DNA of 64,000 bases from a virus (Duplodnaviria > Heunggongvirae > Uroviricota > Caudoviricetes). Of the stretch, positions 38,857 to 61,842 are shown piece after piece. Made by a program: the position numbers and the translations under genes. The DNA lies in IMG/VR virus record IMGVR_UViG_2872147552_000001; one strand, given 5' to 3'. Each line of letters begins with the position of its first letter. Within the stretch, counting starts at the first letter, position 1. Below the pieces are notes generated by a model. It had not been told where the DNA came from. It was given only the letters and a program-made list of their open reading frames with translations, and searched no databases.

Positions 38857-39450
38857 CTAAGCAGCCTTCTTTGATGGTCTTTTTTTCCTGATCACATTCG
38901 CAGGATCATACCCTCCCAGACTTTTCATGACATCCAAAGGGATCTTGCTTATAGAGTGCCCAGCGTCCTGACAGAATCCTCGAAAAACAACGAGCATACT
39001 GCCACCGGGGTTGATGTTTACTTCTACCTGACCCAGATTGACGTCAGGCTCGACAAACGCTACGCGGCCACCAGACAGAATAATCGTCTCATTCGCACAC
39101 TCTGTTGCACGCTCATACCACTTTGTATCGAGGGATTGAGGAATTAGCATCACTGTTGTAACTCCGCGAGCCTGCTCACGTATAGCCGCATCAATCCAGG
39201 GGGAGATTTTGGAGTAGGGTGGATTGAGGAAGGCAATTGTACCTGGCTGCCCCCATTCAGATTTCAAAGCATCACGCTCAACGCCTATGAAATTAGGCAG
39301 CTTCGCATTATCCTTGTTGCAGGCAACGTCAACATCAAATGTCACTCCAAGATAACGTTGAATGGCAGAAAACAGCCAGTCAGGTGTTCTCCAGAGGTCA
39401 CGAAGAGAGTTGTCGCGCTTTCGCTGTTTGATTTTTTCGGCTGCAATCAT
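38857..39450 (-). CDS. phage-type DNA N6-adenine methyltransferase (Dam-like)
   Basis: IAFLNPPYS catalytic motif and overall size (197 aa) typical of phage Dam-family enzymes; palindromic motif 39461-39481 immediately upstream. Confidence 0.7.
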   Translation of the reverse strand: MIAAEKIKQRKRDNSLRDLWRTPDWLFSAIQRYLGVTFDVDVACNKDNAKLPNFIGVERDALKSEWGQPGTIAFLNPPYSKISPWIDAAIREQARGVTTVMLIPQSLDTKWYERATECANETIILSGGRVAFVEPDVNLGQVEVNINPGGSMLVVFRGFCQDAGHSISKIPLDVMKSLGGYDPANVIRKKRPSKKAA

Positions 39451-53832: not shown

Positions 53833-54477
53833 TTACAGCGCGTCAGTTGGCTTTTTACGCGCTGCATTTATGCTTATGACGCCAGCTTTAGGACGTGGAT
53901 CGACAAGGTTCAGTTCTTCTTCGCTATGGTATTCAAGGTCGAACTCACGTTTTACATGTCTGATGTAGATTGCAGTGAGCAGGCTATCTTTGGTCAGGAA
54001 GTGTCCGTAGGATTTGCGGATCACTTCTTCAACCTTCTCGATTTTCTCACCACCCATGCAGAGGTGATTAAACCGGCTGTGTTTCCGCAACATCTCGTCA
54101 ACTGGGCCTGAGTAAACCTTGTCTACTTTCCCAAAACGAATGATTTTTCCTGTATCTGCGGATACAAGGCAAATCAGTTTGTCTGGTGATAAACGATCTC
54201 GCCACGTTACTCCTGAACGGAGTGTGTTGAAGTAGGGCGCATCCAATCCGATGATCGGTTTACGAAATGCGAGCAATGGAACGTACCTGATACAACTATT
54301 CAAATGAAAGTTCACACCAGCCTTATCAAGTTTAATTCTGGTTTCGTAGATCGGGCACTTCGCCGCTATACCGCAGATATCACAAAGTAACTTCTGCTTA
54401 TTCAGGTTGGAATTTGATTCGATAGTGTAGGAGCCGTCCTCAAGACGACGAACCCAGCGCGTGCGTTTTAGATCCAT
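53833..54477 (-). CDS. hypothetical protein
   Basis: 214-aa ORF abutting the iteron/origin region. Confidence 0.35.
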   Translation of the reverse strand: MDLKRTRWVRRLEDGSYTIESNSNLNKQKLLCDICGIAAKCPIYETRIKLDKAGVNFHLNSCIRYVPLLAFRKPIIGLDAPYFNTLRSGVTWRDRLSPDKLICLVSADTGKIIRFGKVDKVYSGPVDEMLRKHSRFNHLCMGGEKIEKVEEVIRKSYGHFLTKDSLLTAIYIRHVKREFDLEYHSEEELNLVDPRPKAGVISINAARKKPTDAL

Positions 54478-54676
54478 AATCGTTTTTTCAGTAGTTATTG
54501 GCCGATGCTACGATAACTCATTAGGCATACCTTAATCTGCATTTGCCTGTTTTACTTATCCCAGTTATCCACTGGATAGATCCAAATAAGAGATCCCAAG
54601 TAAGATCAAATAGAAGATCCAAAGAGATCCCAGATCGCCTCTAGCCGTTGCGGTTACTGGTCTGAAAGGGTGTTGC

Positions 54677-54779
54677 CATCCACTATGGAGAGCAAAGAAA
54701 CCTCTGTAGAGAGCTGAATAACCGCTATGAAGAGTAAAACAACCACTCTGGAGAGCTGTATATATCCACTGTAGAGAGT
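54677..54779 (+). repeat. iteron array 1 (5 direct repeats, consensus A-A/T-CCACT-A/G-T-A/G-GAGAG-C/T, about 21-22 bp spacing)
   Basis: ATCCACTATGGAGAGC, ACCTCTGTAGAGAGC, AACCGCTATGAAGAGT, AACCACTCTGGAGAGC, ATCCACTGTAGAGAGT. Confidence 0.7.
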
Positions 54780-54890
54780 AGAGCACATTGTCTTTTATGG
54801 ATAACTTAATGACTTAATTCTTCATTAACATACTGATATACATAGATATATTTTAAACTCTACTCTTAGTCATGATTCTTATGTCCTTAA

Positions 54891-54946
54891 ATATCCACAG
54901 AAGAGTAGAGTTACCTGTTCTTGAAATCCTCTGATTTTTATCCACA
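54891..54946 (+). promoter_or_regulatory. DnaA boxes (ATATCCACA 8/9 at 54891-54899; TTATCCACA 9/9 at 54938-54946) in an AT-rich spacer
   Basis: Perfect match to the TTATCCACA consensus, located between iteron arrays 1 and 2 next to a 110-bp AT-rich stretch. Confidence 0.6.
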
Positions 54947-55057
54947 GGCCCGATCCAGTAATTCAGATCACAAAGAGAACCAAAGAGACCCATAAAGACC
55001 CAATAAGATCCCCGCCCACCTCAAACCGTTGTGCCATCTGCCTTCAGACATGATCGA

Positions 55058-55180
55058 TATCCACTATAGAGAGCGAATAATCCACTATAGGGAGCAAAGC
55101 AACCACTATAGAGAGGAGAAAAACCACTATAGACGGTAGGATAACCGCTGTGATGAGTGCTACTATCCACTGTAATCAGC
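55058..55180 (+). repeat. iteron array 2 (6 direct repeats)
   Basis: ATCCACTATAGAGAGC, ATCCACTATAGGGAGC, AACCACTATAGAGAGG, AACCACTATAGACGGT, AACCGCTGTGATGAGT, ATCCACTGTAATCAGC immediately upstream of the rep gene. Confidence 0.7.
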
Positions 55181-55220
55181 AAAGGCCACCAAAGCCGTCG
55201 AATAACAAGAGACATTTGGA

Positions 55221-56276
55221 ATGAGCGAAAACGGCAATAAAAACATAGCGATCGTTGAAGCATTTTCAGAAACAGATAAAAAGACAGGCGAAGTTGTTAC
55301 GTTGGTTCCTAACACTAATAACACTGTTCAGCCTGTTGCTTTGATGCGTCTGGGCCTCTTCGTTCCGACGCTGAAATCGACATCCAGAGGAAGAAAGGGG
55401 CAAATGGTCTCTATGGATGCCTCTGCTGAACTCAAACAGCTGTCTCTGGCAAAAGCCGAAGGGTACGAAGACATAAGGATCTCTGGCCTTCGGCTTGATA
55501 TGGATAACGACTTTAAAACGTGGGTGGGAATAATCCACGCGTTTGCCAAACACAAGGTCGTTGGCGATACTGTCACGTTGCCGTTCGTTGAGTTTGTAAG
55601 GCTGTGTGGCATTCCGACCGCCAGGTCATCAGCGAAGTTACGCAAACGCCTGGACAGTTCGCTAAGCCGTATTGCCACAAATACCATCTCGTTCCGTAGT
55701 AAAGGCTCTGATGAGTTTTACGTAACGCATCTTGTGCAAACGGCAAAATATAGTGTCAAGCACGATACGGTCGAACTGAAAGCAGATCCCAAGATTTTCG
55801 AACTCTACCAGTTCGACAAAAAGGTTCTTCTGCAACTCCGGGCTATAAACGAACTCTCAAGAAAAGAATCCGCTCAGGCGCTTTATACTTTTATTGAAAG
55901 TTTGCCGCCTGATCCGGCACCAATATCACTAGCCCGTTTACGCGCCAGACTTAATCTGACAAGTCGCACTATTACTCAGAATGCGACGGTAAGAAAGGCT
56001 ATGGAACAGCTGCGAGAGATAGGATATCTCGATTACACGGAAGTTAAGCGCGGAAACTCGGTCTACTTCGTCATCCACTATAGGCGGCCAAAGTTACGCC
56101 AGGCACAAATATCAACAAAAATCGATAATGATGAGACGGAATATAGCCTCCCAGATGAGAATCAAGATGACATTATCGACGTTGTGCCTGACGAAAAAGA
56201 AGGCAAAATGGTCATGTTGAGTAAAGAAGAACTGGCGCTTCTCGAAGAGTTGCGCAAGGCAAAGACTCGCAAATAG
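55221..56276 (+). CDS. replication initiator protein (iteron-binding Rep candidate)
   Basis: 351-aa plus-strand ORF flanked on both sides by iteron arrays, DnaA boxes and an AT-rich region; assignment by context. Confidence 0.55.
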
Positions 56277-56278
56277 CC

Positions 56279-56395
56279 CAACCACTGTAGTTAGTAGTAA
56301 GGCTCACTATCCACTGTAGTGAGCCTTACTTATATCTGTAATTCGCTATCCACTATAGTGAGTATCGTTATCTGTTGATAACCACTGTAGGCAGT
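56279..56395 (+). repeat. iteron array 3 (4 direct repeats downstream of rep)
   Basis: AACCACTGTAGTTAGT, ATCCACTGTAGTGAGC, ATCCACTATAGTGAGT, AACCACTGTAGGCAGT. Confidence 0.65.
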
Positions 56396-56494
56396 AGAAT
56401 GCAAATACTGAATTAAATGTTAGTGATCACTAACACTGATGAAACAAGGGCTGCGAGGTTAGTGGTCACTGGGTATCTTGGAAAATTTACTGTC

Positions 56495-56760
56495 TATAGT
56501 GGTTGTTGTCGCCCTCATCTTTGAGCGTATCCACTGTGGCGAGTGGATATCCACTGAAAACAGCAAAGGCTTACTCACCATAGTGTATACCCGCTGGACA
56601 TCTCACTCCAATACTCACCATAGTGGTTGTTTGATGCGAATGAAAGGCTGTCTACTCGCTACAGTGGTTAGCAGATATGTAGGAAGAGAGGACTGCAGAC
56701 CACAGTGGATAATGAGCTGATACGAATGCGGTGAGCTGGCTACTCACCGCAGTGGTTGGT
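56495..56760 (-). repeat. iteron array 4 (about 6 copies, mostly inverted orientation)
   Basis: CTATAGTGGTTG, CACCATAGTG, CACCATAGTGGTTG, CTACAGTGGTT, CCACAGTGGATAAT, CACCGCAGTGGTTGG are reverse complements of the iteron core. Confidence 0.55.
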
Positions 56761-56764
56761 GCTA

Positions 56765-56977
56765 TTAGTGTATTTTCTTCAACAGACCCCAAAGTGTTCC
56801 GGCTTTTGTAGTCAGTTTTCCTGTTTCTGGATCGTACATACGCCATTCACGCCGCTGGTGGACGATATACCCATCTTCACGTTCCAGACGCTCAAGAATG
56901 CCAGGCTGCTTGAAACCCTTAGCGCGCCAGTATCCGCTTGTTTTCTCGATTTCCAGACCTGCCAGTGTTAATGCCAT
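56765..56977 (-). CDS. hypothetical small protein
   Basis: 70-aa ORF. Confidence 0.3.
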   Translation of the reverse strand: MALTLAGLEIEKTSGYWRAKGFKQPGILERLEREDGYIVHQRREWRMYDPETGKLTTKAGTLWGLLKKIH

Positions 56978-57312
56978 TATCCAACCTCCTTGCAGTCATC
57001 GAAAAGGTAGCTTTGCTGAGAAGCGTGAACGCCATAGAAGCCCTTGTATTTGTTGTATACGAAGTGGTCTTCTCCGACGCCGGTTAATTTGCCATTACGA
57101 TTTGTGAGATATGGGGATGACAATACTCGATCGTCACGCACAACATAGAACTGGTCGCCGCTGTCTACGACCATCGCTCCATATGGTGCTTTTATGACGT
57201 CGGTAAGAGCACCATTCTTAACGTCGGCTACAGACATTTCACACTGATAAACAGTGGTGTCGGCCACAACGATCGAAGAAAGGAACAACAGCGCGAATGG
57301 GATGGCCTTCAT
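56977..57312 (-). CDS. secreted small protein
   Basis: Signal peptide MKAIPFALLFLSSIVVA followed by a Cys-containing domain. Confidence 0.4.
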   Translation of the reverse strand: MKAIPFALLFLSSIVVADTTVYQCEMSVADVKNGALTDVIKAPYGAMVVDSGDQFYVVRDDRVLSSPYLTNRNGKLTGVGEDHFVYNKYKGFYGVHASQQSYLFDDCKEVG

Positions 57313-59502: not shown

Positions 59503-61842
59503 TTACTCTTCTACTGACTCGGTGGGGTTGTCTTTTGCTCTTCGGTCGTCGATTGCCTGCAAAGCCGCAATGATTTCAGCCAGTGGCTTCTCCCGATACA
59601 TCTCGACGATCTGCGATTTGGTGTATTTCTTGTCACCAATTTCAACTCGCCCGCTGGCGTTCTTTGGCAGGTATCCTTCTTCCAGCATGTACTCGACGAG
59701 CGATTCGATAACGTCGAGGCCACGAGTAGGATCGAAGTAGAATTTCCAGGTGCATTTGCCATACGGTGGTGCAACTTTGTTTTTGATGCATTCTGCGCCT
59801 ACGTCCTGGCCGATCTTCTCTTTACCATCCTTCATCACCGATGCACCAAGACGGATACGTACAGAAGCGTAGAACTTCGGTGAATCTCCACCTGGCGACG
59901 TAGTAGGGTCGCCAAACATTACACCGATTTTTGTGCGAACCTGATTCAAGAAGATGATGCAGGCGTTGTATTTGCGTGCCCACAAAGCCAGAGTAGGGAA
60001 GTTCGCACTCGTCGCACGAGCCAGTGCCGTATTGTCGTTCATGTTTAGCTGATCTTTGTCTTTGGCAGTGCCTTCAGCCATCTTTTCGAACTTCTCGGCT
60101 TTGGAGTTCGGAACCATAGACGCAAGAGAGTCAGCCACGATACAGATTGGTGCTGATTCGGGGATAAGCTCTTCATCACGAACCAATTTAAGTATTGTGC
60201 CGATCAACTCTACAGAGTCTTCGAAGGTATCTGGCTGCTTGTATACCCACTGACCGTCATCCTCATCTGCGTTCAGGCCATTGGCGACAGCCAGGCCAAC
60301 GTCAAAACTGTTTTCATGATCGAGGAATACCGCCAGACCATCCTGTTTTTGTGCTGACACCATCGCAGCCGTCGCGAGGAATGTGTTGTGGCTGATAATC
60401 CCGTTAGACCAGAAAGAGTGTGTTTCCGGCATCGCTACGTCGAACGTTGGTGCTTCACCTTCCTCAATAGCCACGACTTCGTCGTAGAACAAGTTAGAGC
60501 CAATTACCGCTGCCAGTTGTGCAAACAGATGCTCGTTAAAACGATTCTTTCTGCCAATGAAGGAGACATAGATTTCTCGCAGTTTGTCTATTCCGACACG
60601 ATCGCCGCGGCCAATAACGTGGTCTACCAGAGCGTAGTCTTCACGGGTGGTCTTGGTGAGCGACTCGTAGAGTGATTTCACTAAGCCGCTGATGTGCGGA
60701 ACATAGCCTGAGTAAGTGCGGTCAAAACCAATGTCCCGTTTGGTTGCCACTGATAAACGTGCCGGAGATTCGAAACCAATCGTTGACAGAAAAAGGTCGT
60801 AATTAGAGCCACTGAATGACAGCCGGTAATATGTATTTTCATAACCCGCGACGTGTTTTTCAGAGATAGTTGACGTAATCCCCAGATTCAGGAGCATGAG
60901 GCGAATTTGCTGTAGCAGCAGCCCACTCGCGCTCACAACCTCAATGCAGCGACCATCATTGACGTGGCATTCCAGCTCAAAGTAGCCGCGAAGGAATGCA
61001 ATTTGAGCCTCGCTATTGGCGCGACGCACACTCAACGGAACCTGCTTGCCAGCAGCTTTCTCATACTCCAGACCATATTCTTTAAAAAGCAGCGAACGCA
61101 CCTCTTTGCTAAACAGCACATGGTCTTCCGAGCCGTTATGTTTTCTCGTAACTGGCATCTTGTCTGATACCAGCGAAATGAGGCGGTAGTACTCATCCTT
61201 GATGAATGGATCTGTGTTAGAAAAATGCACAGAATTTTCAGAGGCCACGTATCCGTCAGCAATTAAATAGCCCATCAGTTTTGCGATATTGGCATCCAGG
61301 TGCTGATCGCCGAATTGATGTGTGCCAACCATTGAAGGAATCGTGTCGCCTACACTGATTTTTTCAGCATACCGCCAGACGATATTGCCTAAGTCGTCAA
61401 CCACACGGATTGGGTGACGGAACGTAGCCTCGATGTAACCCCCTGATGCCAGCTTAATGCGCTTGAATTTGCGACGGTTGTTCCATGTCAGGTGTGAGGT
61501 CTTCTCTATCACGCCATTTTCATTGATGAGTCCAACGTTATGCTCTACATCGCGAGTAGTGCATGTCGCTTTGTACCCTTCAATCTCAAACAACTCTTTC
61601 ACTGTTACCATTCCACGCTCCGTCAGCAGCATGGTGTCTGCGGTAACACATTTCCCCGCACTTGGTGGCCCGAATACTTCTACGATACGACCACATGGGA
61701 AACCGCCATCGTAACGACCGGAAATAGCTTTGTTTAACGGAGGAAAGCCTGTGTCAATCCAATGAGTTACTTTCTGAATTTCGTCGTTGCTACCGATTTT
61801 CTTTTTCAGAGCAAGTGCCAGTGCGGATTTTCCTTTTGCCAT
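59503..61842 (-). CDS. RecA/UvsX-family recombinase interrupted by an intein
   Basis: Extein reads GRIVEVFGPPSAGK-[intein]-TFLATAAMVSAQKQDGLAVFLDHENSF..., colinear with RecA GRIVEIYGPESSGKTT...; 779-aa precursor. Confidence 0.8.
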   Translation of the reverse strand: MAKGKSALALALKKKIGSNDEIQKVTHWIDTGFPPLNKAISGRYDGGFPCGRIVEVFGPPSAGKCVTADTMLLTERGMVTVKELFEIEGYKATCTTRDVEHNVGLINENGVIEKTSHLTWNNRRKFKRIKLASGGYIEATFRHPIRVVDDLGNIVWRYAEKISVGDTIPSMVGTHQFGDQHLDANIAKLMGYLIADGYVASENSVHFSNTDPFIKDEYYRLISLVSDKMPVTRKHNGSEDHVLFSKEVRSLLFKEYGLEYEKAAGKQVPLSVRRANSEAQIAFLRGYFELECHVNDGRCIEVVSASGLLLQQIRLMLLNLGITSTISEKHVAGYENTYYRLSFSGSNYDLFLSTIGFESPARLSVATKRDIGFDRTYSGYVPHISGLVKSLYESLTKTTREDYALVDHVIGRGDRVGIDKLREIYVSFIGRKNRFNEHLFAQLAAVIGSNLFYDEVVAIEEGEAPTFDVAMPETHSFWSNGIISHNTFLATAAMVSAQKQDGLAVFLDHENSFDVGLAVANGLNADEDDGQWVYKQPDTFEDSVELIGTILKLVRDEELIPESAPICIVADSLASMVPNSKAEKFEKMAEGTAKDKDQLNMNDNTALARATSANFPTLALWARKYNACIIFLNQVRTKIGVMFGDPTTSPGGDSPKFYASVRIRLGASVMKDGKEKIGQDVGAECIKNKVAPPYGKCTWKFYFDPTRGLDVIESLVEYMLEEGYLPKNASGRVEIGDKKYTKSQIVEMYREKPLAEIIAALQAIDDRRAKDNPTESVEE
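60385..61650 (-). mobile_element. intein (422 aa) with LAGLIDADG homing-endonuclease domain, inserted in the recombinase Walker A motif
   Basis: Starts with Cys (CVTADTMLLTERG), ends His-Asn followed by Thr (+1); internal LMGYLIADGYV and FLRGYFELECHVN LAGLIDADG-like motifs. Confidence 0.75.

Follow-up and report, generated by a model that had tools for sequence, protein, structure and literature searches.

A putative P1/RepFIB-type iteron replicon with a tandemly duplicated origin core in an SSU5-like phage-plasmid

The segment 54478-56764 of the window (by which we mean the whole stretch of viral DNA analysed, 64 kb in length) contains the plus-strand gene repA, preceded by DnaA boxes, GATC sites and short repeats (iterons), and followed by further iterons (Table 1). 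The limits given to the gene in the initial annotation are exact and delimit an ORF of 351 aa. A profile search with its product, which that annotation had suggested, found both Pfam domains of the Rep_3 family (PF01051 / PF21205), the family of iteron-binding plasmid initiators, above their cutoffs: Rep3_N, corresponding to WH1 (42.2 bits vs a cutoff of 22.4, E 1.3e-10, aa 115-225), and Rep3_C, corresponding to WH2 (22.6 bits vs 21.1, E 1.3e-4, aa 236-281). The narrow margin of Rep3_C is offset by the 49% identity to P1 RepA (130/267 identical in BLASTP, E 5e-93; tblastn E 1e-71), which spans both domains. With respect to P1 RepA, the protein carries an extra C-terminal tail of ~58 aa. A scan against NCBIfam returned no family at E<=0.01, and a sequence search of the PDB no match at E<=1.

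The order of ASCH-like gene, replicon and cra-like gene is kept within SSU5-like genomes, and here the cra-like gene (56765-56977) is encoded on the opposite strand, directly past the downstream iterons. The locus as a whole lies among genes of DNA metabolism (SbcCD, RecA, nrdAB and dnaE). An Rfam scan of 54300-57100 gave no match at E<=1, so that this interval shows none of the described RNAs, antisense RNAs for copy control included; a scan for intrinsic terminators found none in the replicon region.

Table 1. Coordinates and properties of the features in the replicon region
Feature	Position	Strand	Properties and basis
Module 1, tandem DnaA-box position	54556-54573	+	TTATCCCAG (6/9, degenerate), then TTATCCACT (8/9); alignments
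Module 1, GATC heptamer cluster	54579-54636	.	GATC at 54579, 54592, 54604, 54616, 54626, 54633
Module 1, GC-rich spacer	54638-54675	.	55% GC; aligns with the P1 oriR GC-rich spacer
Upstream iteron array 1	54676-54780	+	five direct 19-bp iterons, spacing 21,21,21,23 bp; scans
Inter-module spacer	54781-54929	.	GC 30% here vs 43% in pHCM2; AT-rich only in this lineage
Module 2, DnaA box	54938-54946	+	perfect TTATCCACA; box scan
Module 2, heptamer region and spacer	54949-55056	.	GATC at 54952, 54966, 55007, 55052
Upstream iteron array 2	55057-55181	+	six direct iterons, spacing 21,21,21,21,22 bp; ends 39 bp before the repA ATG
repA	55221-56276	+	Rep_3-family initiator (WH1 + WH2), 351 aa; Pfam, BLASTP
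Iteron-like site inside repA	56071-56089	+	TCATCCACTATAGGCGGCC; 13.7 bits; kept in all relatives
Downstream sub-array A	56278-56396	+	four direct iterons, spacing 29,39,32 bp; starts 2 nt past the stop codon
Spacer between sub-arrays	56397-56487	.	conserved; two half-iteron-like motifs
Downstream sub-array B	56488-56759	.	eight iterons, orientations -,+,+,-,-,-,-,-; spacing 39,20,25,40,41,41,47 bp

With up to 3 mismatches allowed, the motif AWCCACTRTRGAGAGY has 29 matches in the 64 kb, compared with 3.45 +/- 1.85 expected, a number reached by none of 100 shuffles, and 25 of the 29 fall inside 54567-56757. A position-weight scan (circular in part, since its matrix derives from the same sites) scored 23 sites at 18 bits or more; they all lie in 54676-56759, and the best site elsewhere in the window scores 15.0. 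The four arrays that had been described at the locus are thus real, but they comprise 5, 6, 4 and 8 iterons, i.e. 23 copies instead of about 21, and the spacing of 21-22 bp ascribed to them is found in the two upstream arrays and not among the downstream copies, which are irregularly spaced and six of which lie on the minus strand. Their division into four is also better replaced by two duplicated origin modules upstream and one incA-like region downstream, split by a conserved spacer. The lower-scoring site within repA may, with some uncertainty, be counted as part of the iteron system.

Each of the upstream arrays sits in a complete module that resembles P1 oriR and consists of one or more DnaA boxes, GATC heptamers, a GC-rich spacer and 5-6 iterons, which recur at intervals of roughly two turns of the helix; therefore, the origin core is tandemly duplicated. 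Neither the modules nor the GATC cluster featured in the first description of the locus. The left end of module 1 can be aligned with P1 oriR at nearly every base (CTTATCCCAGTTATCCACTGGATAGATCCAA vs CTTATCCACATTATCCACTGGATAGATCCAA in P1), and its DnaA-box position is homologous to the P1 oriR DnaA site TTATCCACATTATCCACT, according to the alignments and to the P1 features annotated in AF234172; in 6 relatives this position is found at -658 from the repA ATG. The six GATC sites within 58 bp form the densest such cluster in the 64 kb, the next densest containing 3 (Poisson probability ~4e-7 per 58-bp stretch), and all six are kept in the 6 relatives, as are the offsets of the iterons in array 1. 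In SSU5, pHCM2, P1 and PhiR41_1 no 40-mer is less stable than that of the heptamer region; here it ranks as the second least stable. These heptamers correspond to the five Dam sites in oriR of P1, and are a candidate region for unwinding and for sequestration by SeqA.

Module 2 is headed by the sole perfect DnaA box in the 64 kb, at a position which in the relatives lies at -283 and reads TTATACACA. Its heptamers are partly decayed (GATCC, GATCA, GAACC, GACCC, GACCC, GATCC): three retain GATC, and the loss of GATC in the other three (GAACC, GACCC, GACCC) is fixed in 7/7 elements of the SSU5/pHCM2/pMT1 lineage. By analogy with P1 incC, array 2 presumably serves as the promoter/operator of repA. 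A consensus promoter scan detected one weak plus-strand match near the gene (55054-55081), with no strong sigma-70 match over the last upstream iterons and no convincing repA promoter; the 39-nt leader of repA is 93% conserved. The perfect box and the 8/9 box ATATCCACA (54891-54899) that had been reported are both present, and further 8/9 boxes were found at 54565-54573 (+) and 54796-54804 (-).

Both modules evolve under purifying selection. The neutral baseline, taken from the four-fold sites of repA, is 63% identity, compared with 86% for the iterons of module 1 and 88% for those of module 2. The heptamer region of module 2 (54949-55016) is 91% conserved and its spacer (55017-55056) 76%; the module 1 heptamers show 76% identity, with all six GATC retained. 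The offsets of the features are constant across the 6 relatives. The spacer between the modules, which holds the 8/9 DnaA-like boxes at 54796-54804 and 54891-54899 as well as a promoter-like TTAACA-16-TATATT at 54825-54852 (+), had been described as a 110-bp AT-rich region; it is indeed AT-rich (GC 25-31% over ~54785-54930), but about 150 bp long. We rejected it as a conserved unwinding element: its 62% identity equals the neutral rate, its GC content rises to 43% in pHCM2, and the least stable DNA in the relatives is the DnaA/GATC-heptamer region. Without conservation across the replicon type, the AT-rich spacer is a doubtful unwinding element.

The downstream field consists of 12 iterons at irregular distances of 20-47 bp, 6 of them inverted. 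Its central spacer contains two half-iteron-like motifs, GTTAGTGATCACTAAC (56419-56434), which in this lineage is a perfect 16-bp palindrome, and GTTAGTGGTCAC (56458-56469). Among the seven elements compared, the number of downstream iterons ranges from 12 to 17, the fewest (12) being found in this window and 13-17 in the others, and the differences fall in sub-array B, in units of 40-41 bp. The role of P1 incA in copy-number control is established, and by homology the downstream arrays would have the same function, as had been proposed. In FIB replicons, the downstream iteron block has been shown to exert incompatibility and a handcuffing effect, and alone displaces FIB plasmids (PMC11983097).

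At the nucleotide level, the segment 54478-56764 shares 99.3% identity with the region around repA in Escherichia phage Cyrano (pLF82), 99.8% with the E. coli IncFIB plasmid NZ_CP017847, ~83.7% with SSU5 and ~83% with pHCM2 and Y. pestis pMT1; plasmids with 99.8% identity across the region are typed as IncFIB in PLSDB. Over its full length, repA shares 85.3% nt and 91.8% aa identity with repA of pHCM2, and positions 1-25000 of the window are 95-98% identical to SSU5-like phage-plasmids of E. coli. The same replicon is found throughout the IncFIB(pHCM2) group (pHCM2 of S. Typhi, pMT1/pFra of Y. pestis, SSU5 and Cyrano/pLF82), with 5 + 6 upstream iterons, DnaA boxes and GATC sites at identical offsets. 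The version in this window is distinguished from pHCM2 by the lower GC content of the inter-module spacer, and from the group by the perfect DnaA box of module 2 and the perfect palindrome in the downstream spacer.

Comparison with better characterized replicons agrees with the initial view of the locus as a P1-like iteron theta replicon, which is borne out by the Rep_3 domains, the 49% identity of the initiator, the alignment of module 1 and the incA-like layout. P1 oriR likewise comprises tandem DnaA boxes, GATC heptamers, a GC spacer and five iterons 21 bp apart, and the heptamers and GC spacer are common to P1, SJ46, PhiR41_1, pJN2-26 and both modules described here. In P1 incA, as here, the first iteron lies at the stop codon, and direct copies are followed by inverted ones at a spacing of 30-41 bp. 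However, the iteron sequences are unrelated (ATAACCACTGTAGAGAGTA here vs GATGTGTGCTGGAGGGAAA in P1), there are 11 upstream iterons here, where the core is duplicated, vs 5 in P1, and 12 vs 9 downstream, and the downstream array is followed in P1 by the parAB operon and here by the cra-like gene. The ParB-like genes of Cyrano are located elsewhere in its genome; the presence of parAB-parS next to incA is a feature of the P1 genome and not of the replicon type. The RepFIB replicons of F, P307 and pO157 follow the same plan (DnaA site, ori, upstream iterons BCDD'D'', rep and downstream iterons E-K) and share with this replicon the assignment to 'IncFIB' by plasmid typing tools; according to their published description, FIB of F and pO157 has a single upstream iteron set, in contrast to the two found here (PMC11983097).

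A related replicon was identified in pPagL15_2 of Pantoea agglomerans (MOB-suite rep_cluster_807), a 180-kb plasmid that is not typed as IncFIB, of which the 5.2-kb stretch analysed contains rep and two flanking non-phage genes. Its Rep is 69% identical to RepA, the C-terminal tail included, and its iterons have the same consensus. They are arranged in twin upstream modules (5 + 5 iterons), each headed by one or more DnaA boxes and GATC heptamers, and in a downstream set of 14, mostly inverted; the heptamers of its module 2 are less decayed, with four GATC sites. The idea that the duplication of the module is specific to SSU5-type phage-plasmids is thus ruled out by the same layout in a Pantoea plasmid. 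Both modules were found in 334 plasmid records, and there was no single-module record among the 40 matches listed.

From these similarities we conclude, with a probability of about 0.9, that 54478-56764 serves an SSU5/pHCM2/pMT1-type phage-plasmid of E. coli as its plasmid-prophage replicon, an iteron-controlled theta replicon of the P1/RepFIB type. The earlier suggestion that the element is a phage-plasmid agrees with the 99.3% identity to Cyrano and with the distribution of the replicon in 5,426 complete E. coli genomes, in which 226/226 occurrences are plasmid-borne and 0 chromosomal. Cyrano forms virions and is kept at ~5.5 copies per cell (PMC9928086), virions as well as plasmid replication have been reported for SSU5 (PMC7969092), and SSU5-like elements have been described as exclusively extrachromosomal (PMC9600943). 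Replicons of this kind are not new: they are a textbook type in a known phage-plasmid family and are assigned to IncFIB in routine typing; the one less familiar trait is that the origin core occurs twice in tandem.

By analogy with P1 and FIB, RepA monomers would fill the origin iterons and, with the help of host DnaA and of Dam methylation at the GATC heptamers, promote opening of the heptamers and recruitment of DnaB, after which the hemimethylated GATC sites would be sequestered by SeqA. RepA bound to the gene-adjacent array of module 2 would repress the repA promoter, and RepA bound to the downstream iterons would handcuff them to those of the origin, pairing in cis or in trans, and titrate the initiator. 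Handcuffing and titration together would keep the copy number low; that of the 99.3%-identical Cyrano was measured at ~5.5 per cell.

Which of the two modules fires is a matter on which we offer a working guess, put at somewhat less than even odds: in this lineage module 1 would be the main origin of unwinding, given that the tandem DnaA-box position and the six GATC sites are retained there, and module 2, because of its perfect DnaA box, decayed heptamers and gene-adjacent position, would act mainly as an operator and as an auxiliary or second origin. This assignment is weakened by the stronger conservation of module 2 and by the canonical form of both Pantoea modules, and the degenerate first DnaA box of module 1 also counts against it.

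A reversal of the roles, with module 2 (54930-55181) as the functional origin and module 1 (54555-54780) as a control or incompatibility array handcuffing with it, appears rather unlikely. The only perfect DnaA box lies in module 2, no other non-coding segment is as well conserved (box and heptamers 91%, iterons 88%), and the module occupies the oriR position of P1, SJ46, PhiR41_1 and pJN2-26; its Pantoea counterpart retains a DnaA box and four GATC heptamers. However, the P1 origin depends on methylated GATC heptamers for its function, and three heptamers of module 2 are devoid of GATC in all seven elements of the SSU5/pHCM2/pMT1 lineage, whereas the six GATC sites, the tandem-box arrangement and the low-stability region conserved in the relatives all belong to module 1.

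It is also conceivable, albeit at poor odds, that both modules are active origins, used alternatively or cooperatively, and provide redundancy or a different dependence on host factors across enterobacterial hosts. Purifying selection acts on both, both have been kept from Pantoea plasmids to SSU5-type phage-plasmids in spite of 31% divergence of Rep, and the database records cited above point in the same direction. On the other hand, the decay of GATC in module 2 suggests that the modules have diverged in function, and a promoter/operator function alone would suffice to account for the conservation of module 2.

A separate proposal, to which we likewise give a low probability, combines the layout with copy-number tuning: the twin arrangement, with two complete cores per rep, may represent a functional variant of the P1/RepFIB replicon that is as yet undescribed, in which one core would fire and the other, as a decayed 'decoy' origin and operator, would handcuff with it in cis, while gain and loss of the 40-41-bp downstream units (12-17 copies) would set the copy number of each lineage.

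That the RepA/iteron region is the origin of lytic replication, or serves as one in addition, is very improbable. The element is a phage and the locus is placed among the DNA-metabolism genes mentioned above, but the homologous oriR/repA of P1 is a plasmid-prophage replicon and P1 uses a separate replicon, oriL/repL, in its lytic cycle. Moreover, the same replicon drives non-phage plasmids, such as the 180-kb Pantoea plasmid (as judged from its 5.2-kb stretch) and a 188-kb plasmid of E. coli, and handcuffing iterons restrict the copy number, whereas lytic growth needs the reverse. As to readings in which no origin exists and the repeats instead bind a transcription factor as its operators or form a partition centromere, winged-helix Rep proteins do act also as repressors and gene-flanking repeat arrays can be centromeres (sopC, parS), but the chance of either is minute and both are ruled out on homology, given a RepA 49% identical to an experimentally established initiator, a core homologous to P1 oriR with DnaA boxes and Dam sites included, the location of the ParB-like genes elsewhere in Cyrano, and the typing of plasmids as IncFIB by this very region.

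The replicon alone brings no new biology, yet it rightly identifies the element as a prophage carried as a plasmid. Annotation profits from this, since phage-plasmids of the SSU5 type occur commonly in E. coli, Salmonella, Enterobacter and Y. pestis and are able to carry resistance genes. Two modest points may interest specialists, namely the duplicated core kept over a long evolutionary distance and the polymorphic number of control iterons, which together constitute a natural system for relating the geometry of handcuffing to the copy number of phage-plasmids. The twin layout has been preserved in Pantoea megaplasmids as well as in SSU5-type phage-plasmids, and the lineage with the fewest control iterons is that of the window, whose close relative Cyrano is maintained at a comparatively high 5.5 copies.

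The replicon belongs to the IncFIB(pHCM2)/pMT1/SSU5 type, which is itself a variant within the P1/RepFIB family, and annotated examples of the type are nearly identical to it. The 2.3-kb segment is 99.3% identical over its full length to Escherichia phage Cyrano, 99.8% to E. coli plasmid pEcoFMU073332c, ~84% to Salmonella phage SSU5 and ~83% to pHCM2 (S. Typhi), pMT (Y. pestis) and many Enterobacter plasmids. It matches 381 plasmid records, and all those inspected in detail are IncFIB-typed and carry the annotation 'replication protein RepA'. Among 5,426 complete E. coli genomes the replicon was found in 183, at 226 places, all of them on plasmids and none in a chromosome, in agreement with reports that SSU5-type elements are exclusively extrachromosomal (PMC9600943); these elements form the largest phage-plasmid supergroup and are mostly IncFIB-typed (PMC7969092). 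Cyrano corresponds to pLF82, a plasmid found in E. coli LF82; this SSU5-like phage-plasmid is maintained at ~5.5 copies per cell, can be induced with ciprofloxacin and releases virions (PMC9928086). The identity to Cyrano and the 226 plasmid locations thus bear out the initial annotation, made from sequence alone, which had regarded the element as a phage-plasmid. Given the nearly identical annotated examples, and as the 1998 pMT1 sequence papers reportedly already remarked on a RepFIB/P1-like RepA, we rate the replicon as already known. Its duplicated origin core, conserved as far as Pantoea, and its iteron-number polymorphism may be under-described, and it is rather doubtful that they are new and at the same time functionally meaningful.

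The repA gene was found with exactly the predicted limits, within a 2.3-kb block flanked by two minus-strand genes (see the table). A profile search, proposed earlier for its product, matched Pfam Rep3_N and Rep3_C, each above the gathering threshold, and the protein shares 49% identity with P1 RepA across 267 residues (E 5e-93); an NCBIfam scan of RepA returned no family and a PDB sequence search no match. The C-terminal tail (~58 aa) consists of an acidic stretch and then a basic helix; it is missing from RepA of P1 and of the P1-like phage SJ46, and is shared with Rep of pHCM2, pMT1, PhiR41_1 and Pantoea; its sole family match, to Pfam T4_y05I_C, is below threshold.

Features of the replicon and of two other loci of the same element
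Feature	Window position	Strand	Details
Dam-family N6-adenine methyltransferase	38857-39450	-	Pfam PF05869, E 2.5e-38
ASCH-like gene	53833-54477	-	one flank of the repA block
8/9 DnaA box	54565-54573
Module 1 DnaA box with flank	54567-54582		ATCCACTGGATAGATC; scores as a weak iteron
Module 1 GATC cluster	54579-54636		six sites in 58 bp, densest of the 64 kb
Upstream array 1	54676-54780		5 direct iterons, spacing 21,21,21,23 bp
AT-rich stretch	~54785-54930		25-31% GC
8/9 DnaA box	54796-54804
Sigma-70-like match	54825-54852	+	TTAACA-16-TATATT, 10/12
8/9 DnaA box	54891-54899
Perfect DnaA box	54938-54946		only perfect one in the window
Upstream array 2	55057-55181		6 direct iterons, spacing 21,21,21,21,22 bp
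repA	55221-56276	+	351 aa
Intragenic iteron-like site	56071-56089	+	TCATCCACTATAGGCGGCC, 13.7 bits
RepA tail (aa 294-351)	56100-56273	+
Downstream array A	56278-56396		4 direct iterons, spacing 29,39,32 bp
Palindrome	56419-56434		GTTAGTGATCACTAAC, perfect, 16 bp
Palindrome-related site	56458-56469		GTTAGTGGTCAC
Downstream array B	56488-56759		8 iterons, orientation -,+,+,-,-,-,-,-; spacing 39,20,25,40,41,41,47 bp
P1 cra homologue	56765-56977	-	other flank of the repA block
RecA-like gene	59503-61842	-	779 aa

With up to 3 mismatches allowed, the 16-bp motif of the iterons (the repeated sites of the RepA-binding type) has 29 matches in the 64 kb, as compared to 3.45 +/- 1.85 in shuffled sequences, and 25 of them fall within 54567-56757. 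This count is the independent test, as the weight matrix that locates 23 iterons at 18-28 bits (best site elsewhere in the window: 15.0) was derived from these same 23 sites; their consensus is ATAACCACTGTAGAGAGTA. The motif is thus strongly over-represented. The initial annotation had listed about 21 copies in four arrays at 21-22 bp spacing; the arrays stand, the number is 23 and the spacing is valid only upstream of repA. The AT-rich region and the perfect and 8/9 DnaA boxes it had noted are also present. Ten of the 23 iterons (e.g. 54762-54780, 55057-55075, 56547-56565) start with ATCCAC, the core of the DnaA box, and most of these read TATCCAC, matching 7/9 positions of TTATCCACA; it is conceivable that DnaA and RepA sites are cross-recognized in this replicon.

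The organization was compared with that of P1, whose feature order was taken from the annotated record and whose incA orientations were read from the sequence. P1 comprises a double DnaA site, five Dam sites, five incC iterons containing PrepA, repA, and nine incA iterons. In the alignment with P1 oriR, upstream array 1 terminates a complete oriR-like core (module 1), in which a DnaA region (CTTATCCCAGTTATCCACTGGATAGATCCAA, vs CTTATCCACATTATCCACTGGATAGATCCAA in P1) is followed by GATC-containing heptamers, a GC-rich spacer and the iterons. Upstream array 2 is preceded by a second copy (module 2), with the perfect DnaA box first, then heptamers (GATCC, GATCA, GAACC, GACCC, GACCC, GATCC), spacer and iterons. 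Thus, the upstream arrays, and the DnaA boxes previously described in an AT-rich spacer, are real, but since each array belongs to a copy of the same core, their arrangement is a tandem duplication of the origin core, of whose second copy the perfect DnaA box is the first element. Both modules share derived characters missing in single-copy replicons (GCCGTTG vs GCCG-CG), which indicates that the duplication arose within the present replicon lineage. The iteron is unrelated in sequence to that of P1, as expected for initiators and sites that co-evolve as pairs. The downstream field follows the P1 incA plan of direct, then mostly inverted copies: in P1 three direct and six inverted iterons lie 30-41 bp apart and the first ends at the repA stop codon, and in the window the first begins 2 nt after the stop codon and spacings amount to three to four helical turns. 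Initiator, origin core and control field are homologous to those of P1, and the earlier assignment to P1-type iteron replicons holds.

A single core is present in P1, SJ46, PhiR41_1 and Klebsiella pJN2-26. The latter two are members of the SSU5 supergroup that retain the ASCH-like and cra-like flanks (36 bp are 100% identical at the cra end) around a different rep cassette (1048-2955 and 1049-2896 of the fetched sequences; 49-51% Rep identity) with the iteron GTATGCTGTCAGCGGT, unlike that of the window. As the flanks are kept while rep, iteron and core number differ, this looks like cassette exchange within the supergroup. In the pJN2-26 record (MZ779062), 20-bp sites at 1246-1265 and 2516-2535 of the fetched stretch, annotated attR and attL, coincide with two iterons, the first of the upstream set and one of the downstream set, and so have probably been misread as att repeats. 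The twin core is not an invention of phage-plasmids, as it is also found on the 180-kb Pantoea agglomerans plasmid pPagL15_2, whose Rep is 69% identical to the window RepA. In pPagL15_2 the iteron is that of the window, each of the two complete upstream cores combines five iterons with DnaA box(es) and 4-5 GATC heptamers, and 14 further iterons lie downstream. The upstream region is matched by 751 plasmid records, 334 of which cover at least 80% of it. Retention of both cores from SSU5-type elements to Pantoea argues that both are functional in some way. Module 2 of E. fergusonii pRHB41-C15_2 (809-912 of the fetched sequence) has lost one 21-bp unit and holds five iterons vs six, so the origin-proximal iteron number is not strictly fixed.

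Six relatives were compared with the window: SSU5, pHCM2, pMT1, an E. hormaechei plasmid and two more plasmids from E. coli. In all of them the upstream iterons (5 + 6) lie at the same distance from the repA start codon, give or take 2 bp, and positions are likewise conserved for all six GATC sites in module 1, all four in module 2 and the boxes for DnaA at -658, -330 and -283. Mean identity of the window to these six relatives is 75, 76 and 86% for DnaA boxes, heptamers and iterons of module 1, 91, 91 and 88% for the DnaA box, heptamers and iterons of module 2, 93% for the repA leader and 62% for the inter-module spacer. Judged against a neutral yardstick of 63% (repA four-fold degenerate sites, window vs pHCM2), both modules are constrained and the spacer is not. 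We therefore rejected the AT-rich spacer as a conserved unwinding element: its GC content is 30% in the window and 43% in pHCM2, and in nearest-neighbour stability profiles the least stable 40-mer lies in the spacer only for the window and pMT1, and in the DnaA/GATC-heptamer region for SSU5, pHCM2, the Enterobacter plasmid, P1 and PhiR41_1. Its AT-richness is a lineage peculiarity. The spacer also holds the highest-scoring sigma-70-like match found in the region; this match is directed at module 2 and repA and may be a mere by-product of AT-richness. Scans of the replicon region revealed no terminator and no convincing repA promoter, and an Rfam search over 54300-57100 found nothing.

The mechanism of P1 replication is known from the work of Chattoraj, Abeles, Austin and Wickner. 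By analogy with P1 and FIB replicons (PMC11983097), RepA monomers activated by DnaK/DnaJ would bind the origin iterons and, jointly with DnaA on the flanking box(es), melt the region of methylated GATC heptamers; once fired, the hemimethylated origin would be sequestered by SeqA. RepA sitting on the gene-proximal iterons would repress repA, and copy number would be limited by RepA-mediated pairing of downstream with origin iterons (handcuffing), plus titration. As to which core fires, we favour, with a probability of only about 40-45%, opening at module 1, with module 2 serving as operator and as an auxiliary origin, in view of the intact heptamer set, tandem-box position and conserved low-stability region of module 1. 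Firing from module 2 is an alternative, favoured by its perfect DnaA box, highest conservation and canonical position adjoining rep.

The number of downstream iterons is polymorphic (12 in the window, 13 in pHCM2, 14 in the E. hormaechei plasmid, 15 in SSU5, pMT1 and E. coli XYEH, 17 in E. coli AH02), and these elements differ from one another by complete 40-41-bp units in the inverted sub-array. In FIB replicons, the plasmid was displaced by the downstream block on its own but not by the upstream block on its own (PMC11983097), which, by analogy, is the best available experimental support for the copy-control role suggested initially for the downstream arrays. In a Y. pestis pMT-type plasmid (NZ_CP045159), the stretch matched immediately after repA includes the gene for the IS200/IS605-like IS1541A transposase, which places this gene in or next to the control-iteron field, where it could alter copy control in that strain. 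The annotated 46-aa 'hypothetical protein' of pHCM2 (NC_003385; 2547-2687 of the fetched sequence) is wholly contained in the downstream iteron field, where repeat DNA was probably miscalled as a gene.

The conserved 91-bp spacer separating the downstream sub-arrays contains the palindrome and a related site, both resembling the conserved iteron half AACCACTAAC in inverted orientation, and hence could be sites for RepA dimers. Only the lineage of the window has the palindrome in perfect form; relatives read GTTAGTGGTTACAAAC. The intragenic iteron-like site has the same sequence in SSU5, pHCM2, pMT1 and the E. hormaechei plasmid, in which iteron 4 of module 2 equals the core of the site, CCACTATAGGCGG; conservation of the site may be due to coding constraint. 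A comparable intragenic site occurs in SJ46 (2091-2106 of the fetched sequence) and matches 15/16 positions of that phage's iteron, which is a different one.

The predicted Dam-family methyltransferase of the element is possibly relevant to the origin GATC heptamers, as P1 too encodes a Dam-type enzyme. The product of the RecA-like gene, annotated as RecA in Cyrano and as a LAGLIDADG family homing endonuclease by PGAP, has its RecA-like sequence interrupted by a large insert, and on these grounds is probably an intein-containing RecA; the RecA-like gene at the matching position in SSU5 is far shorter.
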